DNA from: Candidatus Latescibacterota bacterium
Lineage (GTDB): Bacteria > Latescibacterota > CBDEFO01
Assembly: GCA_965237525.1 (NCBI GenBank)
Contig: CBDEFO010000004.1
Coordinates: 384,001 to 448,000, forward strand
Reading direction: 5' to 3'
DNA: 64,000 nucleotides
Shown here: positions 16,914 to 54,885 of the stretch, one piece after another
How the letters are laid out: every line of letters starts with the position of its first letter
Numbering within the stretch: the stretch's first letter is position 1
Position numbers and translations under genes: made by a program
The notes under the pieces: model-generated
Database searches by the model: none
Told to the model about the DNA's origin: nothing
Seen by the model: only the letters and a program-made list of their open reading frames with translations

Positions 16914-19352
16914 ATGATCGATGAACATACCTTGCAGGTTTTAGAGTTCGAGAAGGTCAAAGCGATGATCTCCTCCTACGCCGTATCGGCTCTGGGAGAA
17001 GATGAGATAGAAGGCATGCATCCTTTGGAGGATCTTGGCGAGATAAGGGGTAGACTCAAGACGGTATCGGAGCTTGTCGATCTCATAGCGTTCGATGATC
17101 CCGTGCCTATGGGTGGGATTAGGGATGTGCGCGAAGCTATAGATAAATCATCCATCGAAGGCTCGATGCTGAACACCGATGACTTTCTGAACATAAAGGA
17201 GACGCTTTCGGCTTCGAGGCATCTCAAACGTTATCTTGAGAAGCGAAAAGAAACTTGTCCGTCCCTGTTTGATCTTGCACGTAGGTTGATAGACTCACAG
17301 GTACTAGAAAATGAGATAGATAGAGTAATAGATGAGAAGGGCCTCGTAAGGACCTCAGCCAGCAGACGGCTAAAAGAGATCAGGAGGAGGATATCGCAAG
17401 TAGGGGACGATATAAGGGGGGCGCTGGACAAGATGATAGAGAGACTTCCAAGCTCAGTGATTCAGGAGAGGTTGGTGACAATAAGGGACGATAGATTTGT
17501 GATCCCCATAAGGGAGAGGCAAAGGGGCAAAGTCGAGGGGATCATCCACGATCAGTCCGCAAGCGGAGCGACGGTGTTTGTAGAACCATTAGAAACTCTG
17601 GAACTTAACAACGAACTCCGTCAGCTGCAGATCGAGGAAAAAAGGGAAGTCGAAAGGATACTAAGAGAGCTTACGCAGGAAGTGAGAAAGGTAAAAGATG
17701 ATATTTCCCGGTCCTTGGGAGCTTTAGGGAAGTTAGACGGTTTCTTCTCTAAAGCGAGTTTTTCCTTGGACTTCAAAGGGACAGAGCCACTACTCAACGA
17801 TGAAGGAAAGATCGTCCTCAGGGGTGCAAGGCATCCTATCCTGGAAAGGAGATTAAGGCAGAAAACAGTAGAAGATCCACAGAAAATGGTCCCTCTGGAT
17901 ATAAGCTTAGGAGATAAGGTCAATACACTGATTATAACAGGTCCGAACGCAGGCGGGAAGACGGTGGCCTTAAAAACAGTTGGACTCTTGACCCTGATGG
18001 CTCAATGCGGTGTACACATCCCGGCAAATCCGAAATCTGAGCTGTGCGTCTTTAAGAAGGTCTATGCAGACGTAGGGGACGAGCAGTCGATTGAGGACGA
18101 TCTTTCCACATTCTCGTCTCACGTCCGACAGTTAGTAAAGGTTTGCAACGAGTCGGACAGGGATAGCTTAGTGCTCCTCGACGAGATAGGTGCAAGCACC
18201 GACCCCGACGAAGGGGCATCCCTGGCAATGGCTGTCCTTGAAACTCTGTCCCGAAAGCGTGCAAAGACAGTAGCTACAACCCATCATGGAACTTTGAAGC
18301 TCTTTGCACATCAAAAGGACAACATGGAGAACGCTTCGATGGTGTTCGATCCTGAGACGATAGAGCCGACGTTCGTTCTGAGGATTGGAACTCCGGGGAG
18401 CAGCTATGCGTTCGAGATAGCCAGAAGACTGGGAATGCCGGAGGATGTGGTGGAAGAAGCCGCCTCAATTACAGGCGGCGTGGCCAGGAGTATGGAGGAC
18501 TTAATCGTCGAGCTGGACCGTCAAAGACTCGATTACCAGAGAAATAACATAGAGTTACAAAAGGCTCTAAGCGAATCCAAAAGGATGGAGTCCGAGTACG
18601 AAGATAAGCTGGTGGATGTGAAGAAGGAGAGCAGAAGGATCCAGAAGGAAGCTCTTGAGGAATCCAGAAGAATTTTGAATCAGGCTAAGGCTTTGGTGGA
18701 AAGGACTGTAGCCGAGATAAGATCCCAAAAGGCCAGCACACAGGCGATAAAGGAAGCCAGAGGGGTCATAAAAGATGCAGTTGAGCAGGTGGACAAAAGT
18801 TTGAAGGACTATGCCAGTCCCAGGAGCGACAGAGGAAAGGTCCAGGTTGGAGATACTGTGTGGGTTGACAGTTTTGAAAGAGAAGGGGTAGTTGTATCCT
18901 TAACAGACTCTGATAAGGCGAACGTTGATGTAGGTAAAGTCAGAGTTGAAATCCCTACTTCACAGTTGAAGGTTTTGTCAAAAGGCGACGGCGGCAAGGT
19001 CGACCCCCGATTGATCCCCGATAGAAGCAATCGGGAAGGACGACTCCGTGAGCAGAATGTGTCTAAATCCGCTCCTGCTAGAGTGAAGCTGGTAGCTTCA
19101 TCGAATATCTCGGACAAAGTAACAGTCAGACGTATGACCTTCGACGAGGCGTCGGAGGTAGTGGATAAGTATCTGGACGATGCATTTCTAAAAGGATTAA
19201 GGCAAGTATCGATCATTCACGGGAAGGGGACAGGCGCATTGCGGACCAAGTTGAACGCTTTCTTGCAAAAGCATCCGAGAGTAAAGTCCAAAAGGCCCGG
19301 AGCATGGGAAGAAGGCGGGGACGGCGTGACTATTGTTCAGCTAGATTTATGA
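16914..19352 (+). CDS. mutS2: Endonuclease MutS2
   Basis: ITGPNAGGKT, DEQSIEDDLSTFSSH, LLDEIGASTDP, C-terminal Smr domain IIHGKGTGALR; promoter-like TTGATT-N17-TATTAT at 16803-16831. Confidence 0.95.
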   Translation: MIDEHTLQVLEFEKVKAMISSYAVSALGEDEIEGMHPLEDLGEIRGRLKTVSELVDLIAFDDPVPMGGIRDVREAIDKSSIEGSMLNTDDFLNIKETLSASRHLKRYLEKRKETCPSLFDLARRLIDSQVLENEIDRVIDEKGLVRTSASRRLKEIRRRISQVGDDIRGALDKMIERLPSSVIQERLVTIRDDRFVIPIRERQRGKVEGIIHDQSASGATVFVEPLETLELNNELRQLQIEEKREVERILRELTQEVRKVKDDISRSLGALGKLDGFFSKASFSLDFKGTEPLLNDEGKIVLRGARHPILERRLRQKTVEDPQKMVPLDISLGDKVNTLIITGPNAGGKTVALKTVGLLTLMAQCGVHIPANPKSELCVFKKVYADVGDEQSIEDDLSTFSSHVRQLVKVCNESDRDSLVLLDEIGASTDPDEGASLAMAVLETLSRKRAKTVATTHHGTLKLFAHQKDNMENASMVFDPETIEPTFVLRIGTPGSSYAFEIARRLGMPEDVVEEAASITGGVARSMEDLIVELDRQRLDYQRNNIELQKALSESKRMESEYEDKLVDVKKESRRIQKEALEESRRILNQAKALVERTVAEIRSQKASTQAIKEARGVIKDAVEQVDKSLKDYASPRSDRGKVQVGDTVWVDSFEREGVVVSLTDSDKANVDVGKVRVEIPTSQLKVLSKGDGGKVDPRLIPDRSNREGRLREQNVSKSAPARVKLVASSNISDKVTVRRMTFDEASEVVDKYLDDAFLKGLRQVSIIHGKGTGALRTKLNAFLQKHPRVKSKRPGAWEEGGDGVTIVQLDL

Positions 19353-19507: not shown

Positions 19508-19512
19508 GGATA

Positions 19513-20505: not shown

Positions 20506-20517
20506 ATTTCTGTCCGT

Positions 20518-21694: not shown

Positions 21695-24600
21695 GTGTAT
21701 CTACACCGTCTTGAAATATTCGGCTTTAAGTCCTTTGCTGATAAGATCACTTTGGACTTAGGAGACGGAATCACGTCTATCGTTGGCCCCAATGGGTGCG
21801 GCAAGACAAACGTGGTGGATGCCATAAGGTGGGCTTTAGGCGAGCAGAGACCGAGCTTGCTAAGGAGCGATAGGATGGAGGACGTAATATTCTGCGGCAG
21901 TAGGACCAGAAAACCGCTGGGAATGTCGGAAGTTACGCTTACCATCCAGAACACCAAGAATATATTGCCAATAGAGTTTAGCGAAGTTCAGATCACACGC
22001 AGGATCTTCGGGTCAGGTCAGAGCGATTATCTGCTTAATAAGGTCCCGTGCAGGTTGATGGACGTAAATAACCTCTTTATGGATACAGGGATGGGTCCAC
22101 ACGCCTACACCGTTATGGAGCAGAACATGGTTGAGGCCATTATCGGAGACAGCACGGAGGACAGGAGACGTCTGTTTGAGGAGGTAGCGGGCATAACAAA
22201 GTACAAGGTGCGCCGCAAGGCGACCTGGAACAAGCTGACATCCACACAGCAGGACGTTCTAAGGATAGGAGACATCATAGCGGAGGTGGAAAATCAGGTA
22301 GCCTATCTTCGAAGACAGGTCGGCAAAGCCAGAAGATATCAGGCGTATCAGGAAAAGTTAAAGGAATCAGAGATCTCGTTAGGCCGGCATAATTACTACC
22401 ATCTGGAGGCAAGGATACGTCCCTTGGCAGATCAGATAGAAAAACTTAGAGTGGAGATAGAGGAAGACTTGTCTGGACTTTCCCTGATGGAGTCCCAGAT
22501 TGAGAGAATAAGACTCAATCTTATCCAGAAGGACAAAGAGCGCTCTCTAACAGCACAAGTTCTCAACAGCCAGATCGAGCTTATCCAACGAAAAAGCGAA
22601 GAGGTGATAAAGGCCCAAGGAAGGATGGAGAGCCTGACAAAGGACATCGAGCGGCTTGGGCTGGAGGTCGCCGAGGCTACTCGGAAGTTAGATCAAACCA
22701 GAAGAGAAAGGGAAAAAGCCGAAGAGAGTATAACAAGAGTCAAGGCGGATAATCTATCGATCAAAGATAGCCTCAATGTCCAAGAGGAGGAACTGGAAAG
22801 GCTGGTTCGCTCCGTCTCCGAAAAGAGGTATGAACTCGAGGTTCACAAAGAAAAACTGATCCAGCTTTTCCGCTCTGAGTCCCAAAACAGGGGAGCCATT
22901 GAAAGGGATAAAGCCCACATGGACAATATCCTCTCTCGTCTGGAGAAACTGCGCGAAGAGGAGTGTGGCGCTCAATCAGAGCTTAAAGATGCCTTAAAAA
23001 GAGAGCAGGATGCCCTTGAAGCTAATCGAGAAACTCACGAGGCTATCCAAAAGATCAGCCGTGAAAAAGTGACTCTTGAAGAGGAACTTGAGGGGGAGAG
23101 GAAAAGATTAGATTCGATCAGGGAGCAGCTATCAGATGTTAAAGGGAAGATAGAGGCCAAAAGGGCCGCTCTGGCGCTCCTGGAAAAGATAAGGGAGTCG
23201 TATGAGGGATATTCAGAGAGCGTAAGGACCCTGATATTAAGCTCTCCCTATAAAGACCAGATAAGGGGAACTTTAGCAGACCTGCTTCACACACAGGAGA
23301 GATACGCCAAGGCTATAGAGGCGGCTTTGGGGCAGTCACTGGAGTATCTGGTGACGGACAAGATGGAGACAGCCACAGGTTCGATCTCGTTTTTGAAGGA
23401 ACAGGAGGGAGGGAGAGCCACGTTCCTTCCGATGGACAGATGCAAGAATGGCAGGGATAAAAACGAGTCGAACGAAAAGGACCCAATGAACATGGGATCC
23501 GACGAAAAGGTCGACCCCCGATTTAACCCACGATCTAGTCGGGGGGGGGACTCCGTAAAGCCGTCGATCTTGTCAGGTTCGATGATGAACTTGCCCCCAT
23601 TGTCCGCCTCCTGTTGGGAAAAACAGTTGTGGTGGAAGACCTGAAGACGGCCCTTTCCTGCTCCTTAGAGAACGGGAACTCCACAAGATTCGTTACGCTT
23701 GAGGGAGATATAGTCGAACCGTCGGGCCAGATAACAGGAGGTAATTCGACAGAGGTAGATATGAGCCTTATAGGCAGGACGGAGCAGATAGAGGCCCTCC
23801 GGGAACAGATTGAGGAGGAGGGCATAAACCTAAATTGCCTCTCACAGCAGATGACGGGATCGGAGGCTCGTATCTCGGCAATCTCAGTTAGCCTGTCGAA
23901 TGCCGAGGATACCCTATTAGAGCTCAGAGATAAGCTGTCCGAGTTCAAACAACAGGAGGCTCAAAGTAGATCTGACATAAAAAGGTTGCAGGCCAGGTTG
24001 GAGTCCATTTCAAAGGAGACCTTAGAGCTTAAAGAAAGATCCGAACAGCTTCTGGAGGATATAGAAAATCAAGAATTGGAGATAAAAAGACTCGAAGGGA
24101 AAAAAGAGGAACTGAGTCAATCCTCAGGTGAGTACGAACGGGCTTTGCGCACTCTGGAGGAGAACAGGAACCAAAAGGCCGAGGGAGTCCACGAACTGAG
24201 ACGAAAGATGACCTCGCTTGAGGAGCGTTTGCGGGGATTCTCGTCGGATGTGAAGAGATGTAACATACAGATAGCCGAACTTGAGAAGGCCGTTTCGGAC
24301 TCCAGATCCCAATCCGAAAAGGCCGGTGAGGAACTCGATAGGCTCAAAGCTCAAAAGGACAGGGACGAAGATGAGCTTGAAAAGCTCTATTCCCAAAGAT
24401 CCCAGATAGAAAAGGACAGGGACACAAAAGATTCGGAATATCACGAACTAGAGGTCAAAGAAAGAGAATTAGAGAATGAGATACGGGCTAAGAGGAGAGT
24501 GCAGGACGAGCGCAGGGAAAACCTTTCAGATGTCCAGTTTGAGCATTCACAGCTTACGTCCAGAGCCGGCATAGTAAGAGAGAACTTAAGAGACAGATAC

Positions 24601-25317
24601 GGCGTTGACGTGGTGGAGGTAGAACCTTTGGAGGAAGCGTTCAACCCTGAACTTGCCCAGATGCAAATAGAGGAGACACAGGGGAGGATAAGGAGCCTCG
24701 GACCAGTCAATATAGGAGCTATTGAGGAATATGAAAGAGGAACGGAGCGGTATGAATTCCTCTCTGGTCAAAGAGACGATCTACTGGAGGCGGAGGATGA
24801 TCTGAAAAAGACTATTGCCAAGATAGACAGAACCGCAAGGAGCATGTTTACCGAGACGTTTTCAAAGGTGGCAGCCAATTTTCGAAAGACGTTCGTGGAG
24901 TTCTTCGAAGGGGGCCAGGCCGATTTGATCCTATCCGAAGGAGATGATCCCCTGGAGTCCGAGATTAATATCGTTGCCCGCCCACAGGGCAAGAGGCTCC
25001 AGTCTATAAATCTTATGTCAGGCGGTGAGAAGACACTGACCGCCATAGCCCTCCTCTTTTCCATCTACCTGGTCAAGCCGAGTCCGTTCTGCATACTCGA
25101 CGAGGTGGACGCTCCATTAGATGACGCTAATATCGAAAGGTTCATTAAGGTCATACGCAAATTCTCAGACAGAACGCAATTTGTAATCGTGACTCATAAC
25201 AAACGCACCATGGAGGCGTCGGACTGTCTGCACGGCGTGACTATGGAAGAACCGGGAGTGTCTCAGCTCGTCTCCGTCAGACTCGACCTCAATAGAGATG
25301 GGGTGAATGCTGCCTGA
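21695..25317 (+). CDS. smc: Chromosome segregation protein SMC; apparent frameshift in a G9 run at 23541-23549
   Basis: GFKSF, GPNGCGKTN; hinge GRATFLP continuing after the shift as LRKAVDLV...LLGKTVVV; MSGGEK, LDEVDAPLDD. Confidence 0.93.
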
Positions 25318-25689: not shown

Positions 25690-25905
25690 ATCACCCTTCC
25701 CGAGCGTCCGGGCATCTACGTAGAGTTGAGGTTCAGGAGTTCTTGTCGCAGCCGATGGCACGGGAACGCTTGTCATAGATGATCAGGAGCGTTCTATCCG
25801 GGATGGCGACAGTAATTTCGTCCCCTGGTATTGGGTGCACTGTCATCAACAATGGAGACATCTCCTTGGAGCGCTCATTTTGGTGGCCTGTCTTCCGCTA
25901 ACCCT
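25690..25905 (+). pseudogene. Degraded cupin-domain gene
   Basis: DGTGTLVIDDQERSIRDGDSNFVP...H followed by shifted TVINNGDISL. Confidence 0.5.
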
Positions 25906-26110
25906 AATCGCTTGCCAGAGACTCAATCTCAGGCTCTTTGTAGACGTAGTCCACAACGATGGTTTTCTGGTCCCTGTACGGCAGGCTCACAAAGTGATGT
26001 AGAGCTGCGTTCACTACTACCGTCTTGTTGATAGCGTTTGTGACGAGCTTTTCAAGGGAGCTATTAGTCTCATCTTTAAGTCTTATAGTTACAGATGTCG
26101 TAGCCATCAT
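25904..26110 (-). CDS. Small ribbon-helix-helix (CopG-like) protein
   Basis: TSVTIRL beta strand plus two helices; AAGGAG RBS; divergent from the BMC operon. Confidence 0.6.
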   Translation of the reverse strand: MMATTSVTIRLKDETNSSLEKLVTNAINKTVVVNAALHHFVSLPYRDQKTIVVDYVYKEPEIESLASD

Positions 26111-26292
26111 ATTCTCCTTTGACAGTTGATTGATCATTCGATTTGATAGTTAAATGTAGCTACTCGTGTGCATTTTATCAAGTCTGAACGGATAGATTTC
26201 AAAATCTATCCGCTTTTTATTTGTCGCTTCTCCTTGGAGTCTAATGGGACATCCAGGGCGATCAACGCAGTGATCCGTGTGATTTTTTATGC

Positions 26293-26321
26293 TTGACTTT
26301 ACGGTCGGATAGTGGTATTTT
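26293..26321 (+). promoter_or_regulatory. Probable BMC operon promoter
   Basis: TTGACT-N17-TATTTT with a TG extension. Confidence 0.45.
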
Positions 26322-26374
26322 CACTTTTTAACAGGGCTTCAGGCATTGGCAATAAAAGTCAAGGAGGTGCAAAA

Positions 26375-26647
26375 GTGGAAGGAACTGCGCTTGGGATGGT
26401 TGAAACGAAGGGTTTGGTGGGGATGATAGAGGCGTCTGACGCTATGGTCAAGGCGGCTAAGGTGACCCTCCAAAGGTATGAGGCGATAGGCGCGGCTTAC
26501 GTTACGACCTTTGTAAGGGGCGACGTGGGCGCGGTGCAGGCGGCGGTGCAGGCAGGTGTGGAAGCCGCTGGGAAAGTCGGGGAGTTAGTGTCGTCTCACG
26601 TGATCCCTAATCCGCATTCGGATCTGGACGAGGTGATCCTTAAGTGA
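26375..26647 (+). CDS. BMC shell hexamer (BMC-H)
   Basis: [11 protein letters not shown]...DAMVKAA...RGDVGAV...HVIPNPH; AAGGAGG RBS, GTG start. Confidence 0.95.
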
Positions 26648-26714
26648 TCTGTAAAGCTTGAGCTTGCGTTGAGGACGGACTTTCCATAAACTTTGTTAGA
26701 AAGGAGAAAATGTA

Positions 26715-26999
26715 ATGGGTGAGGCTCTGGGAATGATAGAGACTCGCGGGCTTGTGGCGATGATTGAGGCCGCTGACGCCATGGTCAAGGCGGCAAACGT
26801 TCAGCTTGTGAATTGGGAGAAGATCGGCGGGGGATACGTAACAGCGCTTGTGAGGGGTGACGTGGCGGCTGTGAAGGCCGCTACCGATGCAGGTGCTGCA
26901 GCCGGCCAGAAGGTGGGAGAGCTTGTTTCTGTGCACGTGATACCGCGCCCGCATGCGAGCCTGGACGAAGTGCTGCCTATAAGTAAGCCGGGAAAGTAA
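26715..26999 (+). CDS. BMC shell hexamer (BMC-H, EutM/PduA-like)
   Basis: [15 protein letters not shown] pore motif, [16 protein letters not shown]. Confidence 0.97.
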
Positions 27000-27080
27000 A
27001 CGATTTGAAAGGAGATAGATGGTAGAGAGAACCGATTAGATAGTAGGCGGCGGGGGCAGATGCCCTGTCTACTGTGTACG

Positions 27081-27120
27081 CCCGATTGAATCCCTGATTG
27101 AGTCTATCGGGGAGCGGGGG
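27081..27120. repeat. Self-nested mini-hairpin
   Basis: CCCGATTGAAT[CCCTGATTGAGTCTATCGGGG]AGCGGGGG within CTGTCTAC-type repeats. Confidence 0.7.
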
Positions 27121-27140
27121 TTACTGTCTACTGAAGTTAA

Positions 27141-27434
27141 ATGATAATGGGCAAGGTCGTGGGCACTGTTGTGGCCACACAAAAAAATGAGAGGCTCAAA
27201 GGGACGAAGCTTCAGATAGTCCAGCCTGTGGATATGGATGTCGTGCCTGTGGATTCGTACCTTGTGGCGGTGGATTCTGTAGGAGCGGGATACGGTGAGA
27301 TAGTCCTGTGTGCGAGCGGAAGCTCGGCTCGACAGACGAGCATAACGGAGAACGCGCCTGTAGATGCGGTTATCATGGCGATTGTGGATTCCTTTGAGAT
27401 TGAGGGCAGAGTGGTTTATCGCAAAGATGGCTAA
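27141..27434 (+). CDS. BMC vertex pentamer (EutN/CcmL)
   Basis: GKVVGTVVATQK, VAVDSVGAGYGE, GSSAR, PVDAVIMAIVD. Confidence 0.96.
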   Translation: MIMGKVVGTVVATQKNERLKGTKLQIVQPVDMDVVPVDSYLVAVDSVGAGYGEIVLCASGSSARQTSITENAPVDAVIMAIVDSFEIEGRVVYRKDG

Positions 27435-28905
27435 CGGAAAAAAGATAGCAAGCAATATCAAGCTAGATGAGGCGAAGATAAGGACGATTGTGGAGGAGGT
27501 GGTAAGGGAGTTTTCCCGGTCGAAATCGGCGTTGGACTCGGGCGATGGACGCAGATCTGAGATAGCGTCCGATATGGAGACAGGGGACGGTCTCTTTGAA
27601 AATATAGAGGACGCTATTTGCGCTGCCGAGATAGCTCAAAAGGAGCTATCTGATCTTTCGCTGGAAAAGAGGAAAGATATCGTTGAGGCGATAAGGAAGG
27701 TGGGGACAGAAAACGCCGAGGACCTTTCGAGGATGACCCTTGAGGAGACGGGCATGGGGAGGTTTGAGGATAAGGTGAAAAAGCACCTTATGGTGTCTCA
27801 GCTGACACCGGGAGTGGAGGATTTAAAGACGGATTCCTGGTCGGGCGACAGGGGACTTACGATTGTGGAGATGGCGCCTTACGGAGTGATAGGAGTCGCC
27901 ACGCCATCAACGCATCCTGTTCCGACGACGATCAACAACGCTATCTCTATAATCGCCGCGGGAAATTCGGCGGTGTTCAATCCTCATCCGGGGGCAAAGA
28001 GGGTCTCGGCGTGCGGGATAGCCAGGATAAATAAGGGTATAGTCGAGGCAGGAGGACCGCCGAATCTCCTGACAACTGTGACCGATCCGACCATAGAGAC
28101 GGCGAAGGTGCTGTTTAGCCATCCGAAGATAAGGTTGCTTTTAGTGACCGGAGGTCCGGGCGTTGTGAAGGCAGTGATGGAGTCCAACAAGAAGGCTATC
28201 ACAGCAGGTCCGGGTAATCCTCCCGTGGTCGTGGACGAGACCGCAGATCTCGAAAGGGCGGCAAAGGATACTGTACAGGGGGCCAGCTTCGAGAATAATA
28301 TTATATGCACAGCCGAAAAAGAGGTCTTCGTAGTGGAATCTGTGGCGGATGAGTTTAAAGAACATGTGAAGAATAACAACTGTCACGAGCTTACGGCGAT
28401 TCAGATAGAACAGCTCGCCAAGATAGCCTTTGTGAAGGATGAGAAGACTGGTCACCTTATGGTAAACAAGCAGTTGGTGGGGAGGGATGCCTCTGTCTTG
28501 GCCGAGAAGATCGGCGTTTCTGTTCCGAATGAGACGAGGCTCCTTATCGGCGAGACTTCCCCCGAGCATGTGTTTGTACAGGAGGAGCAGATGATGCCGT
28601 TTCTGCCTATCGTGAGAGTCTCCGATGTCCATAAGGCAATAGACCTTGCGGTGCAGGCCGAGCACGGCTACGGACATACGGCAGTGATGCACTCCAGGAG
28701 CGTGGAGAATATGACCGAGATGGCGAGGAAGTGCAACACTGCCATCTTTGTGAAAAACGGGCCTTCGATAGCGGGTCTTGGAGTGGGCGGCGAAGGGCAC
28801 CTCTCATTTTCGATAGCAGGTCCGACAGGTGAGGGGCTGACTTCACCACGCACGTTCACAAGGCAGAGACGATGCACGCTTGTGGATTATTTTAGGATTA
28901 TTTGA
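27427..28905 (+). CDS. Acylating aldehyde dehydrogenase (EutE/PduP-like) with an N-terminal encapsulation peptide
   Basis: APYGVIG, TGGPGVV, GPGNPP, NIICTAEKE, EQMMP, TGEGLTS; EP-like LDEAKIRTIVEEVVREF. Confidence 0.95.
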   Translation: MANGKKIASNIKLDEAKIRTIVEEVVREFSRSKSALDSGDGRRSEIASDMETGDGLFENIEDAICAAEIAQKELSDLSLEKRKDIVEAIRKVGTENAEDLSRMTLEETGMGRFEDKVKKHLMVSQLTPGVEDLKTDSWSGDRGLTIVEMAPYGVIGVATPSTHPVPTTINNAISIIAAGNSAVFNPHPGAKRVSACGIARINKGIVEAGGPPNLLTTVTDPTIETAKVLFSHPKIRLLLVTGGPGVVKAVMESNKKAITAGPGNPPVVVDETADLERAAKDTVQGASFENNIICTAEKEVFVVESVADEFKEHVKNNNCHELTAIQIEQLAKIAFVKDEKTGHLMVNKQLVGRDASVLAEKIGVSVPNETRLLIGETSPEHVFVQEEQMMPFLPIVRVSDVHKAIDLAVQAEHGYGHTAVMHSRSVENMTEMARKCNTAIFVKNGPSIAGLGVGGEGHLSFSIAGPTGEGLTSPRTFTRQRRCTLVDYFRII

Positions 28906-28920
28906 TAAAGTGGAGATATT

Positions 28921-29163
28921 GTGAGACCGCTATCGATCTTACTCAACATTGCCGTTGTTACTGCAATGATTTTTCTAATTGCATCTGAAGGTATACCGGA
29001 TGAAGGAAAGTACATGCTGTTGTTTGTACTTCTTATATTCACTCCAATAGTCAATCTTTATGTATTACTCGGAAAAAATGGGGACTGGGTTAGTCTTTAC
29101 TTTAAGAGAAAGGCCATGGAAGAAAAAAGTAGGATCGAGGAATTACAGAACAAAAAGCAATAA
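28921..29163 (+). CDS. Small two-TM hypothetical protein (cargo)
   Basis: GGAG RBS; AT-rich; two hydrophobic stretches. Confidence 0.7.
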   Translation: MRPLSILLNIAVVTAMIFLIASEGIPDEGKYMLLFVLLIFTPIVNLYVLLGKNGDWVSLYFKRKAMEEKSRIEELQNKKQ

Positions 29164-29253
29164 TTACTGCGCACAATGGCTTGTAGACAGTTGAACTCAA
29201 GAAAAGATTTCCACCTTTCCGATAGTCTGCTGGAAATGCATATAATAACAGAC

Positions 29254-29370
29254 GAAGATAATTAGCGAATGCGGTTGGTGAACATAATAGACTCTGTAGT
29301 AGCCACAAGGTAAAAACTGAAAAGCTGGATGCCCCAGAGTAATGTATATTTGTAATAGTTCGGATATACT
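29254..29370 (+). repeat. Degenerate copy of the BMC-P 5' end plus a shared ~65-bp tail
   Basis: ATGCGGTTGGTGAACATAATAGACTCTGTAGTAGCCAC resembles the gene start at 32766; tail matches 30837-30899. Confidence 0.75.
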
Positions 29371-29411
29371 GCCGGGAGGTTTCCGGTTTTTAACTTAGGA
29401 AGACCCACAGA

Positions 29412-30734
29412 ATGTCCCAGTGGATAGAAAGAATTGATAGCCATCCTCTACATGAACAGATGAGGACACTTGATTCAGTATTGGACGAACTGGATGAATT
29501 TGAGGACCCTTCGGAAGAGGGGACTCACGGCTTTGAAAGGCTAAGACAAATCAACGCTTTAGTTCAATCTAGAATATCCAGTTTGGATCCATTCCTTTTC
29601 CCTTTGCATATTCTTGACAGTCTTAGCTCTTCCATTCAAGAGATAACATCACAAGTTAAGCAGTACACGTCAAACCGGGACCTGGGCCACTTGAATAACG
29701 CGAACCAGGAAGCGGACACCGTGTTAGTTAATATTTCTAACTTACCTGTAATTAGAGGGCTTGAAGATGTCCAGGGACTCAGGGAAGCAGCTACTTCCTT
29801 TCGAAGATCCGTTGCACAGTATCAGAGATATGTGGAGGATGAACAAAAAGGGCTACAGGCTCCAATTCAGAGCTCACAGCAAAGGCTGGAACAATTAAAC
29901 ACAGAAATAGAAAACCAGAGAGGACGACTTGACTCTGCAATCGCTGAGTTTCAAAAACAGTTCTCTGAGGCAGAGGAGCGTCGGAGAAACGAACACGGGC
30001 AAGAAGAGAAACAGAGAGCCTCAGGATATGTGCAGGCGCAAACTGAGCGCGCAGAAACTTTCAGGGCGAATAGTGAAGAATGGCAGAAAACTTACCAGAA
30101 TCTGAAAGACGAAATCGCCAAAGCCCATGAAACTTTAACAGAAAAATATGACAGCAGCATACAAGAACTTGAGAGCAATTTCACCCAAAGCGCCGAAGTA
30201 TATATGCAAGAATTGGAATCTCACAAGGAACGGGCACAAGAACTTGTCTACGTAATAGCAAATACAGGTATGGTTGGTGGGTACCAGAAGATTGCCAATG
30301 AGGAGCGTCGGTCAGCAAATCGGTGGCATGTCATTACAATTGTTTCGTTGATCTGTCTAATAGGGTTCGCAATCTATGCTTTTGCTTCAACCATAGGTGA
30401 AGAAGTCAAAATTGCGACTTTTCTTGGTCGTGCATTTGTGGCAGTCACTTTTGGTATTTTGGCTGCGTATGCCGCGCGACAAGCAGACAGACACCAGGAA
30501 ATTGAACGAAATAGTAGAAGAGTTGAACTAGCGCTAGCATCCATCGACCCATATTTGGCTGGTCTCCCTGATGACACATTACAGGAGGTTAAAAAGGATC
30601 TTGCTCAAAGGTTTTTTGGTCAGCAGGATTCTGAACGGGCAAAGCGTAAGGAGAAGTTTAGTGGTAACGCTGCCGACCTGCTCCGCATGACAGTCGAAGC
30701 ACTTGTTGATATAGCGAAGAAATCTGGCAAGTAA
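29412..30734 (+). CDS. Coiled-coil protein with two C-terminal TM helices (cargo)
   Basis: 440-aa ORF, AGGAAG RBS, heptad-rich middle region. Confidence 0.8.
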   Translation: MSQWIERIDSHPLHEQMRTLDSVLDELDEFEDPSEEGTHGFERLRQINALVQSRISSLDPFLFPLHILDSLSSSIQEITSQVKQYTSNRDLGHLNNANQEADTVLVNISNLPVIRGLEDVQGLREAATSFRRSVAQYQRYVEDEQKGLQAPIQSSQQRLEQLNTEIENQRGRLDSAIAEFQKQFSEAEERRRNEHGQEEKQRASGYVQAQTERAETFRANSEEWQKTYQNLKDEIAKAHETLTEKYDSSIQELESNFTQSAEVYMQELESHKERAQELVYVIANTGMVGGYQKIANEERRSANRWHVITIVSLICLIGFAIYAFASTIGEEVKIATFLGRAFVAVTFGILAAYAARQADRHQEIERNSRRVELALASIDPYLAGLPDDTLQEVKKDLAQRFFGQQDSERAKRKEKFSGNAADLLRMTVEALVDIAKKSGK

Positions 30735-30778
30735 TCAAACAAGACCCTCTGATCTGGGAAATGATTCTGGACAACATG

Positions 30779-30969
30779 AAGGATATTTACTCCAAGGCAC
30801 TTAGGGAAAGTAATAGGCTCTGTCGTAGCCACATGGTTAAAACTGGACGCCACAGAGTTCACCCAGAGTAACGTATATCTGCAATAGTGCGTATATACCG
30901 CCAAATTGAAAAGATATCTGAAATAATGTGGACATGAACGAGGATTATTTTAGGATTATTTGAGAAAGT
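30779..30969 (+). repeat. Second degenerate BMC-P 5' copy and tail, then a copy of the aldehyde dehydrogenase 3' end (30942-30969)
   Basis: GGCACTTAGGGAAAGTAATAGGCTCTGTCGTAGCCAC; GGATTATTTTAGGATTATTTGA(G/T)AAAGT matches 28884-28911. Confidence 0.8.
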
Positions 30970-31010
30970 ACGATCATTATGCGTAATTGGCATCACCTAT
31001 GGAGGTTGCT

Positions 31011-31535
31011 ATGTGGTTCGTACGCTGTTTTAGCTGTTTACTGTCTCTGGTCGTGATACTGATCATGCCAGCAAATTCTGTATCCGAAGAGGATGAATGG
31101 TGGAAGTTAAAGGCAGATGATAGGGCATTCAGTTTCACAGAATTCAGAAAGAGAGCTGAGCGCGTAGGTAGTAGCCTGAACAACTTCGCTGATTTCACGG
31201 AAGTGCTTATTCGAAACAGCAATCTCAATCAAGCTGTTCTTAATCTTAGTGAAATATCGGATGATCAAGTTATCATCTTCAAAATTAAAGGCAAAGATCT
31301 TAAGCGATTTAGCATGGATTTACTCTGGGAAGCGCAATATATAGGTTTCAAGAACCGTATGACAACGATAAAAAGATATGGTTATATTAGCCAGAACGAA
31401 ATTCTTGAGTTAAGACTGGAGAATCTGAAGCTCAAGGGCGCTTCCCAGAAGGAGATCGAACAAATACAAGTCTCTTTGGACGAACAACAAAAGCAATTGC
31501 AGGACTTTCTATCTAAGGGGATCTGGGTTGACTGA
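31011..31535 (+). CDS. Secreted hypothetical protein (cargo)
   Basis: GGAGG RBS before MWFVRC; signal peptide. Confidence 0.7.
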   Translation: MWFVRCFSCLLSLVVILIMPANSVSEEDEWWKLKADDRAFSFTEFRKRAERVGSSLNNFADFTEVLIRNSNLNQAVLNLSEISDDQVIIFKIKGKDLKRFSMDLLWEAQYIGFKNRMTTIKRYGYISQNEILELRLENLKLKGASQKEIEQIQVSLDEQQKQLQDFLSKGIWVD

Positions 31536-31589
31536 AGTCTGAGTGGGTATTAGCAAGTTATCTGAATCTATTTAAGCAGGAAGAATTAG

Positions 31590-32141
31590 ATGAAAGCGTC
31601 CGCTATATTATCTCTCAGTATGAGACTTATTGCCTTACTGTTGGGGGTCCACGCCAATGTTTACGTACCGATGATTGGCTGGAGTATGGCGCGACTCCTG
31701 TCTGATGAACCCTACCAGTGGCCCAATATCGCATCTCAAGCGTCAGCTTTTATTCTGAGCCTTGTCGCAGCCTGTCTTCTTTTCAGATATGCGGATCTGC
31801 TGACCGCAAAATTTGTCTCCTCCGATGAAGAGATTGATATAAGAGGATTGGATGATCTCTCCAAGAGTCAGGATATGTTCCAGTTTGCGTTGAAAGTTGT
31901 CGGCGCTGTCTGCGTTGCCTTCTCGATCCCTCAGATTGTGGGACAGGGGATTATGAGGATAATGCTCAATCCTTCTTTTCAGATGCAGTTGTGGTCTTAC
32001 ATTGTGCCTGGAATCATACTTCTTGGGGTTGCTATCTACCTATTGAAAGACGGTCGTTTCCTAATGGATTTGGCCTACGGGCAAAGGATAAGAGGATCAG
32101 TTTCAGATAATACATCGGAGTCTTCAACTCCTTTGATCTGA
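31590..32141 (+). CDS. Four-TM membrane protein with an internal two-helix repeat (cargo)
   Basis: 183-aa hydrophobic ORF. Confidence 0.75.
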   Translation: MKASAILSLSMRLIALLLGVHANVYVPMIGWSMARLLSDEPYQWPNIASQASAFILSLVAACLLFRYADLLTAKFVSSDEEIDIRGLDDLSKSQDMFQFALKVVGAVCVAFSIPQIVGQGIMRIMLNPSFQMQLWSYIVPGIILLGVAIYLLKDGRFLMDLAYGQRIRGSVSDNTSESSTPLI

Positions 32142-32191
32142 TCGTTCTCTCCAATTTATAAAGCGGGTAGTTTGGAGGATAATTCAATCCG

Positions 32192-32362
32192 ATGCGCTTA
32201 GGAAAAGTAATAGGCTCTGTCGTAGCCACGCGGAAAGACCCTAATTTAGAGAGCATCATGCTGAGGATAGTCCAGCCGCTGAATCATAGGGGTGACAAGA
32301 TCGAAGAGCCTCTGGTTGCCGTGGACATGGTCTGTGCGGCCCACAAGGAGACGGGAAAATGA
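32192..32362 (+). pseudogene. 3'-truncated BMC-P copy (56 aa); stop overlaps the ybjQ-family ATG
   Basis: MRLGKVIGSVVATRKDPNLESIMLRIVQPLNH...VAVDMV; leader GGAGGATAATTCAATCC identical to that of the 32766 gene. Confidence 0.9.
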
Positions 32363-32673: not shown

Positions 32674-32765
32674 CAGGAACGAGGCGACTTCACATAACTC
32701 GGGCTTTACGGCTCACTACGTTTGACTCAAATTGCCTTCGATAGTCTGGAGGATAATTCAATCCA

Positions 32766-33520: not shown

Positions 33521-33523
33521 ACT

Positions 33524-34709: not shown

Positions 34710-34712
34710 AAA

Positions 34713-39961: not shown

Positions 39962-40991
39962 ATGGATGATGTATTATCAGGGCGGGAGAAAACTATCCTT
40001 CACTTTCTGGTCGACGAATATATAGACAGGGCTGAACCCATTGGATCGAGGGCGATATCTCAAACCGGTTCTCTTGGGGTGAGTCCAGCTACAATCAGGA
40101 ATTCTATGGCTGACCTGGAGGAAAAAGGCTACGTCCGCCAGCCTCATACGTCTGCGGGCCGGATCCCTACTGATAAAGGCTATCGGTGTTATGTGGATCA
40201 TCTTATGGGAGATGGGATATTAACAAGCACTGAGAAGTCTTTGATCAGTCAAGCGGTGCGTTCGCACATCAGGGAAGGTGATATCGAAAACATCCTGGAG
40301 CAGGTATCCAAAGCTATCGCAGATGTATCGAAACAGCTAGGTATCGCTCTGGCTCCCCGCTTTGAAAATGGCGTACTTGAGAAAGTTGAGTTAGTATCGT
40401 TCACAACTTATAAGCTCGTTTTAGTACTTAAGGTTGTGTCTGGCCCTATCAAGACGGTCATAGTGGAGTTAGATTCCAGCAATATCGTCCGATGAGCTTT
40501 TGGAGACCGCTGGAATATTAAACGACAGGCTCTCTGGACTTTCAATAGGTGAGATCAGAAGATCTATAAAGGACAGGTTCAAATCGGTATCCAGAGGAAA
40601 TCCTAAACTGATCCAAATAGTAGTTGAAGAGGTTAATGTCCTTTTTAATTTCGTTGGTCTAGGTAGACTCTACCTAGACGGAACCACCAATGTTTTTATG
40701 CAGCCTGAGTTTAGTGATAGCGAGAAAATATCAGACCTTATGAATCTTTTGGAGGACAGGGAGTCCGTTGTCTATATGCTCCACAAGAATACAGATGAAG
40801 AAGGAATCTCCATAACTATCGGTCATGAAAATAGGGCTGAGGGGATGGAGATGTGCAGTATGGTTAACTCTTCCTATGTTGTCGGCGGGAACGCCGGCAT
40901 TATAGGATTGATAGGCCCGACCAGGATGAAGTATAACAGATTGACAGCGTTGGTTAAATACGCGTGCGAACTGACGAGCAGTCTTCTATAG
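39962..40991 (+). CDS. hrcA: Heat-inducible repressor HrcA; apparent +1 frameshift at ~40475
   Basis: SPATIRN, PHTSAGRIPTDKGYR in frame 1; ISITIGHEN, IGPTRMKY in frame 2. Confidence 0.92.
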
Positions 40992-42839: not shown

Positions 42840-42968
42840 GTCATTGCGAGCACCCCCGATTGAATCTATCAGGGGGAAGCAATCTCACTTAAACTGCCTC
42901 GTCTACTATTTGCCGTCCACTATTTTGGATCTCTATAATCACCTCCAGACTATTTTGACCCGATACTT
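42840..42968. repeat. REP-like element containing a mini-hairpin (42853-42876), followed by the 80-bp repeat
   Basis: GTCATTGCGAGCA[CCCCCGATTGAATCTATCAGGGG]GAAGCAATCTC...GACTATTTTGACCCGATACTT. Confidence 0.75.
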
Positions 42969-44690: not shown

Positions 44691-44732
44691 CCCCCGATTG
44701 AACCCCCGATTGACTCTATGGGGGGTCGGGGG
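44691..44732. repeat. Self-nested mini-hairpin
   Basis: CCCCCGATTGAA[CCCCCGATTGACTCTATGGGGG]GTCGGGGG. Confidence 0.7.
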
Positions 44733-45275: not shown

Positions 45276-46358
45276 GTGATGCGCATGATTGTAACATTTT
45301 CGTCGGGGATCGGCGCTATGCTCCTCATTCTTGGATGTGGTCGGGGACCAGCCGATAGTGTAATTGGATCGGATTACTCAGGCTCCACATCGGCAGATCA
45401 GGAGTCAACAGATAGACTTAAGAAAGCTGCAGGAGAGGACGACAGCGGTGATCTCGTGGTCGGTACGGAGGATTCAGGAGACATCAGGAACCTGATTGAC
45501 CTTGTGGCTGGCGCGGATCACGAGGGTCATGGTGGTTCTCATAGTGATCAGATAACTCATGACATAGAGCAAGACGGCGATAGTGATTCTCACAGCGATG
45601 AGGTGACTGATGACATAGAACGCGACGTTGATCGTGATACTCATAGTGATCAGATAACTCACGACATAGAGCAAGACGGCGATAGTGATTCTCATGGAGA
45701 CAATCTTGCTCGTGCCTTAGATCACGACAATGATAGTGATTCTCATAGCGATGAAGTGACTGATGACATAGAACGCGACGTTGATCGTGATACTCATAGT
45801 GATCAGATAACTCATGGCATAGAGCAAGACAGCGATAGTGATTCTCATGGAGACAATCTTGCTCGTGCCTTAGATCACGACAATGATAGTGATTCTCATA
45901 GCGATGAAGTGACTGATGACATAGAACGCGACGTTGATCGTGATACTCATAGTGATCAGATAACTCATGGCATAGAGCAAGACAGCGATAGTGATTCTCA
46001 TGGAGACAATCTTGCTCGTGCCTTAGATCACGACAATGATAGTGATTCTCATAGCGATGAAGTGACTGATGACATAGAACGCGACGTTGATCGTGATACT
46101 CATAGTGATCAGATAACTCATGGCATAGAGCAAGACAGCGATAGTGATTCTCATGGAGACAATCTTGCTCGTGCCTTAGATCACGACAATGATAGTGATT
46201 CTCATAGCGATGAAGTGACTGATGACATAGAACGCGACGTTGATCGTGATACTCATAGTGATCAGATAACTCATGACATAGAGCAAGACGGCGATAGTGA
46301 TTCTCATAGCGATGATGTTTCTGGTGATGAGGACGGGACGGACCACAGTCACGAATAG
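45276..46358 (+). CDS. His/Asp-rich repetitive lipoprotein
   Basis: AAGGAG RBS, ILGC lipobox, fifteen 17-aa repeats. Confidence 0.85.
   Translation: MMRMIVTFSSGIGAMLLILGCGRGPADSVIGSDYSGSTSADQESTDRLKKAAGEDDSGDLVVGTEDSGDIRNLIDLVAGADHEGHGGSHSDQITHDIEQDGDSDSHSDEVTDDIERDVDRDTHSDQITHDIEQDGDSDSHGDNLARALDHDNDSDSHSDEVTDDIERDVDRDTHSDQITHGIEQDSDSDSHGDNLARALDHDNDSDSHSDEVTDDIERDVDRDTHSDQITHGIEQDSDSDSHGDNLARALDHDNDSDSHSDEVTDDIERDVDRDTHSDQITHGIEQDSDSDSHGDNLARALDHDNDSDSHSDEVTDDIERDVDRDTHSDQITHDIEQDGDSDSHSDDVSGDEDGTDHSHE
45534..46298 (+). repeat. Coding higher-order tandem repeat: 51-bp subunits A/B/C forming 153-bp units
   Basis: Order B-(ABC)x4-AB, 765 bp, near-identical copies. Confidence 0.95.
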
Positions 46359-46383
46359 AAAGGCTATGTAGCAGCCGGCGACG

Positions 46384-46421
46384 GCGACATGCAGGGCGTC
46401 ATGCGACATGCAGGGCGTCAT
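46384..46421. repeat. Exact 19-bp tandem duplication
   Basis: GCGACATGCAGGGCGTCAT x2. Confidence 0.8.
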
Positions 46422-51842: not shown

Positions 51843-51921
51843 GGCGGATCGTCCAGCTGTGAGGATGGCACAGCCTTCTTGCAACCTTCCTGAGGCAAGG
51901 GAACGTCCACACTACAGAAAG

Positions 51922-54885
51922 ATGAAGGGAAAGGCGAAGGAACTGCCTACCTGTCTTTGCCTTAGCGCATGTGCTCTTTACTTGGTGTTATCGTTTGACG
52001 CATCTTCGTCCTCGGCCCAAGAGAGGTCGACCCCCGATTTAATCGGGGGCGACTCCGTGTGGAACATTTTGGCACTAAGGGTTGAGTTCCCCGAAGAGGA
52101 GCCGGACGATCCTACAACCACGGGGGACGGTACATTTGATCTGAGGAGCTTCGAGGAAGCCCTCCCCTCGTATGAATTTCCCTACGACACACCCCCACAC
52201 AATCGCCAGTACTTCGAATGGCATCTTCAGGCCCTTGCCAACTACTACGATAAAGTCTCCGAGGGCAAGATAGACATCCGCTTCGATGTCTTCCCGGCAA
52301 AACAGGACTCCAGCTACAAGCTCCGACGAACAATGATAAGCTACGGAAACGGGAGGAATCAGGACGAGGTCGATCAAAGGTTGGTAGATCTGTTTAAGAA
52401 CGCCTTGGCCTTGGCCGATTCTGTGGAAGGGGACAACTTAGATTTTAAGCAGTACAACAGTTTCCTGATCATCCACGCAGGGATTGACGGCAGCACAGGA
52501 GCTTTGAACGACATCCCATCTGCCTATCTATCTCCTCGTGACTTTGATACTTTTGTGGGCGGTCCTGTCTTTGTGGAGGACGGATCTTTCGCCATAGATA
52601 ACGGTTGGATACTTCCGGAGTCTATAAGTCAAAATGGCGTAGGCGGCTTGAACGGGACGGCGGCGCGGATCTTTGGGAATCAACTGGGACTTCCGGGGCT
52701 ATCTAACTTTAAAGATAATCTCCCCGCCGTAGGTGGCTGGAGTTTGATGGATACCGGATTTATAAACGTGGGGGCTGGCCTTCTGGGATACGTTCCGAGC
52801 CACCCTATGGCGTGGTCGAAGATAGAACTCGGCTGGATAGAGCCCCTAAAAGTGACCAGAGACACGACTCTGACCATTGCAGCAACAGACATTTCGTCCC
52901 ACCATCCCAAAGCGGTTATGGTTCCCATAGACTCCGACGAATACTTTCTCCTGGAAAACAGACAGATGAGACGACGGGAGGATGAACTTCCCGATGTGGA
53001 GTATTCAACAGGGGACAGCGCGGGAGTGTGGCTCTCCCTCGACAGCTACGATGCCTATATCCCCGGATCGGGGATATTGATATGGCATATAGACGAGGCC
53101 GTTATAAGTGGAAAAAGAGCTACAGGAAGTATAAATGATGATCCCGTTGACAGCGGCATCGACCTTGAAGAGGCAGACGGCTATGAGGACATCGGCAATC
53201 CTATTTTCGATAGGATCGCCGGGATCGCCGGATCAAAGGAAGATCCTTTTTTTGTGGGCGGAACGACGGCCTTTTCGCCCTCTACTGTCCCGAGTTCAGA
53301 CAGCAAGTTCGGGGCAGTGACGGGTATTACGATAGTTGTGAAGGACTCCCTGCAAGATGAAATGACGGTGGAGATTACGTTTAACGCAAATAAGGAAGGA
53401 TGGCCGCTGTCCAGACCTTCCGGATTCATAGCGTCTCCAAAGACCGTTGATGTAAATGGAGATGGGGAAAAAGAGATAATAGCCGTCTCGCGCGATGGCA
53501 ATGTGCATATCTGGAGGTCGGATGGGACGACTCTTTCTGCCTTTGAGACGGATTCTGGTGTCCTCCTCGACCCTGCGGTAGGCGATGTAGATGGAGATTT
53601 GAAGCCGGATGTCCTGCTGGTTCACGAAAACGGAGACGTATCTGCATGGAACTCTGAGTCCACTTCTCTGCTGTGGAGAATGGAGGGGATAGGTGCCTCG
53701 ACGGCTCCAATTATCTCTAACGTGGATGCGGATGCGGCAGGAGAAGTTATAGTAGGCTTAGACGACGGTTCGATTGCTATTTTAAATGGCCAGGATGGGA
53801 GCCTCCTTCGCAAAGTGGAGACAGGAAGGTCAAAGATAGTCGGTATAGCAATAAAGGGCAAGGATATAATTGCTGTCAACGAAGAGGGAGAACTATTTAT
53901 CGTAGGAGAGGACGGAAGCGGAGAGCAGGTTCCGGTCGGCAATATCGAAGGTCGTCCCTCAGGTTCTCCCGTGCTTGGGGATACAGACGGAGACGGTAAA
54001 GTTGAAATTATCCTCCTGTCAGAAGATGGGATTTTAACTGTCCTGAGAGAGGATGTGCAGCGTCCTCTGTTCAGCGCTGACATCGGAGATGATATTCGGT
54101 CGTCCCCTATTTTGACCGATCTGGATGGAGACGGTTCTTTGGAGGTGGTATTTACGGGAGAGGGAAAGGTGCACGCCTGGAGGTTTAACGGCATCCCAGA
54201 GGCCAATTTCCCCCTCATTTTGCCTCTGAAGGATAAGGTCGGAGGGATCGCATCTTCGCCTATCGCGGCTGACATAGATGGCGACGGGGATCAGGAGATA
54301 ATTTTCGGGACATCGCAAGATCTGGTCTACGCCATCCGTTCTGACGGTCAAATAGCCTCCGGATTTCCTCTAACCTCGATCGGAGAAATCGTCTCATCGC
54401 TTGCAATAGATGATTTAGATGGCGACAACCGCCTCGAACTGTGCGCTCTGACCGCCTCGGGTACGGCTCATGTCTGGGACATATCCAAGATAGCTTCATC
54501 CTACACGGGAACCGATATAACGTGGGGTCAGTCAAACGCAGGTCCGGCTAATTCAGGAGTCTATCCGGGCGTTATATCGCCTCGCCCGCAATCTGTACGT
54601 CTTCTGCCTTCGGACAGGGCTTACTGTTATCCCAATCCCATAGATGGTGATTCGGCTCATTTAAGGTTCTTCCTGGGAGGAGAAGCCAGGATAAACGTCA
54701 AAATGTTCAACGGAGCGGGAGAACTTGTGGGAGAGGTGTCAAAGGACGATTTAGAACCCAGAACGGATAATGAGATCGTTCTGGATATGAGAGATTACAG
54801 TAGCGGTCTTTACATCTTTCGTCTTGAGGCTACAGGTAACGGGAAAAAGGAGGAGGTCTTCATAAGGGCGGCTGTGAGTAAGTAG
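51922..54885 (+). CDS. M6-peptidase-like domain (zinc motif degenerate) with FG-GAP repeats and CTD
   Basis: ILALRVEF, IIHAG, WSLMD.G, EYFLLENR, GILIWHID, DLEEADG; DxDGDG repeats; YPNP. Confidence 0.8.
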   Translation: MKGKAKELPTCLCLSACALYLVLSFDASSSSAQERSTPDLIGGDSVWNILALRVEFPEEEPDDPTTTGDGTFDLRSFEEALPSYEFPYDTPPHNRQYFEWHLQALANYYDKVSEGKIDIRFDVFPAKQDSSYKLRRTMISYGNGRNQDEVDQRLVDLFKNALALADSVEGDNLDFKQYNSFLIIHAGIDGSTGALNDIPSAYLSPRDFDTFVGGPVFVEDGSFAIDNGWILPESISQNGVGGLNGTAARIFGNQLGLPGLSNFKDNLPAVGGWSLMDTGFINVGAGLLGYVPSHPMAWSKIELGWIEPLKVTRDTTLTIAATDISSHHPKAVMVPIDSDEYFLLENRQMRRREDELPDVEYSTGDSAGVWLSLDSYDAYIPGSGILIWHIDEAVISGKRATGSINDDPVDSGIDLEEADGYEDIGNPIFDRIAGIAGSKEDPFFVGGTTAFSPSTVPSSDSKFGAVTGITIVVKDSLQDEMTVEITFNANKEGWPLSRPSGFIASPKTVDVNGDGEKEIIAVSRDGNVHIWRSDGTTLSAFETDSGVLLDPAVGDVDGDLKPDVLLVHENGDVSAWNSESTSLLWRMEGIGASTAPIISNVDADAAGEVIVGLDDGSIAILNGQDGSLLRKVETGRSKIVGIAIKGKDIIAVNEEGELFIVGEDGSGEQVPVGNIEGRPSGSPVLGDTDGDGKVEIILLSEDGILTVLREDVQRPLFSADIGDDIRSSPILTDLDGDGSLEVVFTGEGKVHAWRFNGIPEANFPLILPLKDKVGGIASSPIAADIDGDGDQEIIFGTSQDLVYAIRSDGQIASGFPLTSIGEIVSSLAIDDLDGDNRLELCALTASGTAHVWDISKIASSYTGTDITWGQSNAGPANSGVYPGVISPRPQSVRLLPSDRAYCYPNPIDGDSAHLRFFLGGEARINVKMFNGAGELVGEVSKDDLEPRTDNEIVLDMRDYSSGLYIFRLEATGNGKKEEVFIRAAVSK

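Follow-up and report, generated by a model that had tools for sequence, protein, structure and literature searches.

The window analysed here, a stretch of 64,000 nt from the genome of a Candidatus Latescibacterota bacterium (G000), carries a short palindromic element both between and inside its genes, among them mutS2, smc, an M6-like gene and a DUF3566 gene (Table 1). The family unit is a 23-nt DNA hairpin, Y-CCCCGATTGAATCTATCGGGG-R, which also exists as a 17/19-nt variant; copies of the unit measure 19 to 23 nt (17 nt in the variant) and those of a longer subtype 35 to 53 nt. All four coding copies reported in the original prediction are real and lie at the predicted places in open frames. 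An Rfam scan of the window returned 3 tRNAs and nothing else.

Table 1. Copies of the hairpin element and their host genes in the window.
Feature	Position	Strand	Remarks
Long (53-nt) subtype copy in mutS2, linker before Smr	18997..19049	+	Inner 23-nt unit 19015-19037
Subtype copy, SMC hinge loop	23508..23556	+	3' end over conserved 'GVIG' strand position
G9 run, one base short in assembly	23541..23549	+	4/4 runs, 3 studies; G001 frame 1216 aa
Short (35-nt) subtype copy near N-terminus of M6-like gene	52024..52058	+	z -4.4
Degenerate plain 23-nt unit, DUF3566 gene tail, past Pfam domain	4269..4291	+	SPLDSIGD
Plain unit in GTCATTGCG..GAAGCAATC-type repeat upstream of mutS2 ATG	16722..16744	+	Absent in G001
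Plain unit replacing centre of GTCATTGCGAG..GAAGCAATCTC repeat before prmA	42853..42875	+	Absent in G001 (+19 nt)
Unit nested within older copy	27091..27113	+	G001 has older copy only (+19 nt)
Nested intergenic copy	44703..44725	+	12 nt longer than G001
Nested intergenic copy	6154..6176	+	
Perfect unit between genes, upstream of two tRNA genes	3682..3704	+	
Host gene mutS2	16914..19352	+	TIGR01069, 856 bits, over cut-off
Host gene smc, interrupted through assembly error only	21695..25317	+	
Host ORF, T9SS-type M6-like inactive metalloprotease	51859..54885	+	Start codon uncertain

The mutS2 copy translates as KVDPRLIPDRSNREGRLR and lies between an SH3-like domain (aa 724-764 of the 891-aa ORF) and the Smr domain (817-889); as DNA it folds into a hairpin of -12 kcal/mol (z -3.4). 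The smc copy, translated as KVDPRFNPRSSRGG.., lies in the hinge, where its 3' end falls, in the alignment, on the conserved strand that precedes AVDLV. At the orthologous sites of a congener (the sister species, G001), mutS2 holds a form that is 18 nt shorter in the same frame, and smc holds a 35-nt form, also in frame. The original prediction had expected extra length at both sites, and the alignments agree: the MutS2 linker is longer than in 12 aligned outgroups, and the SMC hinge loop has 49 aa in G001 versus 20 to 34 aa in 13 outgroups. The element nevertheless explains only part of this extra length, the net addition of the short form to the SMC loop being likely ~5 aa. Neither equal-length linkers nor a lack of other coding copies, the two outcomes named as speaking against the prediction, was observed.

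The M6-like copy translates as RSTPDLIGGDSV, in a different frame from the mutS2 and smc copies, and is 3 nt longer in G001 with the frame kept. The protein has a putative signal peptide, recognized by eye, and is without HExxH; its best model is 'inactivated metalloprotease' (NF052323), at 397 bits against a cut-off of 600 bits. The DUF3566 copy is present as predicted but is a plain 23-nt unit rather than a member of the AGGTCGA/GACTCCGT subtype to which it had been assigned. It is common to G000 and G001 (361 versus 363 nt, 98%), and the homologue search returned 1 match, 98% identical, which carries little outgroup information. Intact copies of the element fold with z scores of -2.8 to -4.6; for the assembled smc and DUF3566 copies, the fold shows no gain over shuffled sequences (z 0.6 and -1.1).

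The element does supply the G-run at which smc is interrupted, but the interruption is an assembly error and not biological, and the gene is intact in the organism. This follows from an extra G after 23540 in contigs from all four runs examined (three studies) and from the intact 1216-aa open frame of the G001 gene, which together also rule out smc as a pseudogene or a programmed frameshift. Run X1 is possibly the source sample, so that the extra base is better supported by X2, X4 and X5; G23548C, the consensus base, was also found in contigs of three runs. The assembled halves match SMC_prok_B 1-594 and 625-1181.

Genome-wide, we observe 624 loci (~600 copies) in G000 (completeness 96.6%; 4150 genes, 83% coding, called with a custom script), a census from which the smc copy is absent, being too degenerate for the pattern. 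The majority (459) are intergenic, 35 overlap a gene end, 38 lie in the first 30 codons and 22 in the last 30 codons of a gene, and 70 are ORF-internal; no copy overlaps the 47 tRNA/tmRNA calls or the single 16S located. The family is not a product of chance, since the reversed consensus has 1 match in G000 and a loose pattern matched 62 times in contig C3, versus 8 to 14 times in three Markov simulations. Across 444 G000 copies, conservation of the flanks is limited to the ±1 bases, which co-vary (T..A in 215, C..G in 142), and nothing further out is conserved. Repeat-type flanks (GTCATTGCG/GAAGCAATC or GTAGACAG-type) accompany 268 of the 624 loci, and 92 more are self-nested only. The exact 21-nt pattern CCCCGAT-N7-ATCGGGG matches 268 times in G000 and 237 times in G001 (98% complete, one contig); among 59 other genomes of the phylum it occurs once each in two and is absent from 57. 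In a collection scan, the matches listed were mostly to loci titled Candidatus Latescibacterota, the remaining listed carriers being Deltaproteobacteria, Thermodesulfobacteriota and a Nanoarchaeia record with 1 to 19 copies each.

The 70 ORF-internal copies (11% of the loci) are spread over 65 genes, with 54 of them in strong genes of at least 250 aa. Copies are nevertheless far sparser inside genes than between them (23 versus 593 copies/Mb, a 26-fold depletion). Nearly all internal 21-mers (59/61) use one of the four frames without stops, which encode PIDSIG, PIESIG, PRLNLSG and PDRFNRG. The hosts include SecA, an AcrB-family transporter, Fmt, a FabF-like synthase, phosphoglucomutase, an ABC transporter and a subtilase (27 G001 orthologues scanned), as well as an RNase_T/helicase gene, and several copies lie between Pfam domains or beyond them. 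Together with a clean 7-aa gain in phosphoglucomutase relative to PDB 1WQA, these counts bear out the proposal that an independent and much shorter family of palindromes contributes in-frame peptides to housekeeping proteins; the label 'RPE-like' (after the Rickettsia palindromic elements) fits its behaviour but not its family membership. The inserted peptides are likely passengers that the proteins tolerate in their loops, linkers and termini, and selection has likely retained coding copies only where the frame is preserved.

Comparison of G000 with 2.8 of the 4.54 Mb of G001 (~95% identical) shows recent gains in both species. An orthologous site could be resolved for 254 of the 624 G000 loci, with 64 of these empty in G001, and for 231 of 344 G001 loci, with 34 empty in G000. 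After four duplicates were dropped and only length differences of 10 to 45 nt kept, 63 events remained. Outside genes, the lengths have modes at +19/+20 and +27. Multiples of three account for 13/18 events inside genes of the empty genome versus 18/45 outside (P = 0.027), and the five out-of-frame genic exceptions are in IS transposase ORFs (three) and small hypothetical ORFs (two). This classification on the empty genome replaces a first frame test (13/13 versus 18/50), which was discarded as biased because its genes had been called with the insert present. Where polarity could be checked, in three genes only, the empty state is ancestral. One of the three is the phosphoglucomutase compared with 1WQA; for a dehydrogenase, the empty allele gives an almost gap-free alignment with 4H3V, and the shared peptide of g4080 is absent from P0002. 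The homologue search for g4080, with 2 matches, holds little outgroup information, and one dehydrogenase had no PDB match at 1e-20.

With respect to the junctions, 51 of the 63 events had ungapped anchors and were kept for the flank tests (12 were left out), and 28 of the 51 replace 2 to 5 target bases, typically ~4 nt. The replaced bases are often N-C-G-N, resembling the unit's own ends, with a central CG in 9 of 15 replaced 4-mers. Read by eye, about 4 of the 51 events show a 3- to 4-nt duplication, and there is no regular target-site duplication. Beside the 28 new copies, mismatches between the two genomes amount to 30/112 (27%) at 1 to 2 nt, 25/168 at 3 to 5 nt and 29/280 at 6 to 10 nt, and fall to ~5% beyond 10 nt, versus 7%, 5%, 3.6% and 4% in the same distance bins around 97 unchanged shared copies. 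The filled flanks of these 28 events match other copies better than the empty ones do in 17 cases, equally in 8 and worse in 3 (Wilcoxon, P = 0.0009). Empty flanks already score 10.0 against other copies versus 6.0 for random sites (8.7 versus 5.7 for 12 coding events). All these flank-match statistics are inflated by the many targets that already consist of repeats, and several coding gains have a best donor match scoring 5 to 7, no better than random (null mean 6).

The clearest case is a long form in a DUF4340 gene (G001:2947787), which is flanked by AGGTC and CGACTCCGTGT. Its empty G000 counterpart already has both arms (5 and 11 nt), with 6 unrelated bases between them, and the 11-mer occurs 8 times in G000. 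Given this gain between pre-existing arms, the subtype ends AGGTC and CGACTCCGT likely act as homing arms. Net gains of the subtype keep the frame (+33 observed, and probably +15 for the short form), and copies with the 3' arm are found in ORFs in 7 of 13 cases versus 130/624 overall (P = 0.008). The long form with the same junction is seen in mutS2, at C8:1933902 and at G001:2947807, always with the loop AGAAGCA, which is found in 8 of 446 G000 loops. Three sites with the long form in G000 (mutS2, C8:1933920 and C1:48694) carry the short form in G001 or in contigs of the sister population, and two of the three share that loop. Donor copying explains the shared long form more easily than independent events would.

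No RAYT/Y1 transposase (PF01797) was found in G000 or G001, with a positive control in 6 of 14 genomes; among distant carriers of the exact 21-mer, three genomes have 1 to 10 Y1/HUH genes. A reverse transcriptase profile had no match in G000 and two in G001. GIY-YIG frames comprise a 608-aa frame common to both genomes and a stand-alone 107-aa frame in G000 only, flanked by other inverted repeats and without the hairpin element. The most abundant IS (~140 copies, IS1182-family), the only one inspected, has ends unrelated to the element. Loss of recJ as a driver was ruled out, the gene scoring over the cut-off in both genomes. Copy orientation in G001 showed no clear difference between GC-skew classes, an observation that is uninformative on a single-stranded donor.

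In-frame palindromes are established for Rickettsia RPEs, given as ~150 bp in PMC10969869 and tabulated at ~105 to 150 bp, along with further in-frame cases, in PMC3184786. The element resembles them in placing a palindrome in frame in unrelated protein genes, with recurrent peptides, and the accessible text of the same two papers names no dedicated RPE transposase. It differs in length (17 to 53 nt versus ~105 to 150 nt), in being gene-internal in 11% of cases versus nearly half in some RPE families, in its host (a Latescibacterota genus rather than Rickettsia) and in inserting into itself and other repeats. They are likewise established for REPs of 20 to 40 bp, many of which lie in DNA repair genes and are probably neutral in linkers (PMC3733652). 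With GTAG/CGTC-tagged REPs the element shares a hairpin of 20 to 40 bp, hundreds of copies and a mostly intergenic location (459/624); unlike them, it has no terminal tag, conservation stopping one base outside the 21-mer, and it has no RAYT in either genome (PF01797, 0/2). REP-type repeats here are often its target, their centre replaced by the hairpin unit. The separation from intragenic REPs is drawn from the main text of PMC3733652, whose supplementary table could list a related family. The element is also like a MITE in being non-autonomous and hairpin-forming, with filled and empty sites between relatives (PMC10969869, PMC3184786), but it is far shorter, loses target bases, is without a regular target-site duplication and has no IS with matching ends, as far as the most abundant IS (~140 copies) goes.

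The closest mechanistic likeness is to SPDIR (short-patch double illegitimate recombination), in which single strands from the same genome replace a target under the guidance of microhomology (bioRxiv 2023.11.22.568220), with an intragenomic donor, two-sided microhomology and replacement microindels of 3 to 100 bp with clustered base changes (bioRxiv 10.1101/2023.11.22.568220). Here, two-sided donor-target microhomology is seen statistically and in one clear case, confounded by the repeat targets, and replacement comes with clustered flanking substitutions (27% to 5% over ~10 nt versus a flat control). However, SPDIR as described there yields rare one-off variable indels, whereas the present genome holds hundreds of recurrences of a single sequence, and a single-stranded intermediate would have to be assumed. 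SPDIR-type events are raised by loss of ssDNA exonucleases or of RecA loading; of the genes for these functions, the analysis covered recJ, which is intact. In sum, the element works like an RPE or an intragenic REP, lacks the RPE length, the REP tag, a RAYT and the MITE duplication, and bears two SPDIR signatures. Our literature search found nothing on this hairpin family or on a link between SPDIR and palindromes, but most subscription papers could not be searched, so that absence from print is not established.

On balance, we lean towards the notion that this is a selfish 23-nt hairpin which has recently gained sites in the genus, is copied from donors onto short matches in an SPDIR-like manner without a transposase of its own, and persists in coding sequence where the frame is kept. 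A single-stranded piece containing the folded hairpin would bring its two flanks together, could anneal, at a fork or gap of replicating DNA, to a site that resembles it, and would be built in with a few target bases overwritten. As the flanks would travel with the unit, a variant born in coding sequence (net +15/+33, AGGTC...CGACTCCGT arms) could reach further genes by homing, with older copies overwritten on the way, and this would account for the recurrence of one long form at mutS2, in an RdgB-like gene and at C1:48694. Since recJ is present and SPDIR is rare in wild-type Acinetobacter (below ~1e-12; bioRxiv 2023.11.22.568220), copies in the hundreds call for a source of donors, or a boost, that is so far unexplained. 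A stronger version is more speculative, and we put it forward tentatively: a minimal selfish hairpin without any enzyme, in which folding makes homing arms of chance flanks, which is copied through microhomology and jumps phyla, and whose coding-adapted sub-lineages (net +15/+33 nt) home from gene to gene, overwriting earlier copies.

The main rival, which we regard as rather unlikely, is a trans-acting nuclease of the HUH/RAYT or GIY-YIG type, transient, lost or diverged beyond detection. It would recognize the hairpin, cut single donor strands at varying distances from it and insert them at sites that contain CG, and the carried-over flanks would result from where the cuts fall. TnpA-REP is reported to cleave 5' or 3' of the REP at C|T, to carry out strand transfer and to be able to cut at variable distance from the REP (PMC8266576). 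Such an enzyme would also suit the favoured central CG in the replaced 4-mers and the strong conservation of the 21-mer, which is found as well in unrelated phyla with Y1 genes in their genomes. Both genomes have gained copies, though, without PF01797 and without a fixed GTAG/CGTC tag, and empty sites already match the flanks of other copies; the stand-alone 107-aa GIY-YIG frame could be a candidate, but no copy lies at its locus and no G001 counterpart was found.

It is improbable that the element is ancient and no longer spreading, the species differences being mostly hairpin-induced deletions and ectopic gene conversion. Some empty 4-mers (TCGA, CCGA) do fit a jump across the stem, and the short-to-long exchange at occupied sites needs conversion only, but the majority of the empty 4-mers (ACGA, ACGT, AAGC, GCAG...) do not correspond to stem ends, the empty state agrees with distant homologues, and the exact core is missing from 57 of the 59 other genomes of the phylum. 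We give least credence to functional coding copies, whether as selected peptide tags, as DNA or RNA signals in genome-maintenance genes or as inserts removed at the RNA level. The presence of copies in mutS2, smc, secA, fmt and the RNase_T/helicase gene might suggest this, as might the intragenic REPs in repair genes noted by Di Nocera et al. (PMC3733652); yet the hosts are functionally mixed, the four frames give unrelated peptides, copies are depleted 26-fold in genes, length and sequence vary freely between the sister species at mutS2 and smc, and the smc and DUF3566 copies as assembled do not fold beyond shuffles. Frame preservation, moreover, implies translation rather than removal.

In-frame palindromes are already known in bacteria, and their presence in MutS2 or SMC is unsurprising. 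For annotation, the recurrent peptides SPIDSIGD, SPIESIGD, PRLNLSG, PDRFNRG and PDLIGG are markers of insertion in predicted proteins, and G-rich element ends can produce false pseudogene calls, as in smc here. What the 63 de-duplicated filled/empty pairs from two near-complete sister genomes provide is a readable signature (bases replaced, flanks co-converted, arms pre-existing), which points to a specific and testable mechanism for the spread of palindromes without a transposase. The dissemination of REPs has been called poorly understood (PMC8266576), and for CGTC REPs the main text of PMC3733652 reports that no transposase was found. If the enzyme-less hairpin reading is true, the transposase-free spread of RPE- and CGTC-type palindromes would have a general explanation that can be put to the test.

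The hairpin-derived peptide of MutS2 has a near-identical counterpart in a second protein of the source genome (G000), as KVDPRLIPDRSNRGGRLR in a 213-aa protein encoded on contig C8, a putative RdgB/HAM1 judging from its motif. At the counterpart of this gene in the congener genome (G001), we observe the short form of the hairpin.

Locations of features in the window and on contigs C4 and C8 of G000
Feature	Location	Strand	Remarks
IS1182-family element, split copy	window 11802-13203		
DUF4159 genes, duplicated in tandem	window 13220-16527		84-92% alike
Small repeated ORFs	window 25904-35534		clustered with aldehyde dehydrogenase and class II aldolase
hrcA	window 39962-40991		two ORFs instead of one
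51-nt tandem repeat	window 45458-46420		within 360-aa ORF 45276-46358
M6-like ORF	window 51859-54885		matches NF052323 'inactivated metalloprotease', score under cut-off
213-aa protein	G000:C8:1933296-1933937	(-)	N-terminus MEKGK-KVDPRLIPDRSNRGGRLR-LVLAT..
Stand-alone GIY-YIG frame (L237), 107 aa	G000:C4:479893-480114		inverted GTCATTCCC..GGGAATCCAG repeats on its flanks

With respect to the other repeats in the window, the IS1182-family element is present in about 140 genome copies (269 end matches), and the cluster of small repeated ORFs may represent a bacterial microcompartment locus, which it resembles. The 360-aa ORF containing the 51-nt tandem repeat has no Pfam match. The split of hrcA is possibly a further assembly error. 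At window position 19765, 6 bases of the Na/Ca exchanger gene are missing from the contigs of sequencing runs X1 and X2.

The M6-like ORF is adjoined by C25 peptidase and PorV genes, and the expected HExxH position of its M6-like domain reads ARIFGNQLGL. In the sister-population contigs, its ATG at window position 51922 is changed.

When G000 and G001 are compared, the stand-alone GIY-YIG frame is found in G000 only. The exact 21-mer, the strict core pattern of the hairpin, also extends beyond Latescibacterota: the matches listed include entries whose titles name Deltaproteobacteria, Thermodesulfobacteriota and Nanoarchaeia, and these non-Latescibacterota genomes carry 1-19 copies each. At two of these non-Latescibacterota loci, the exact 21-mer falls within open frames, which appear RelA/SpoT-like (L198) and similar to a LuxR-type HTH (L230).
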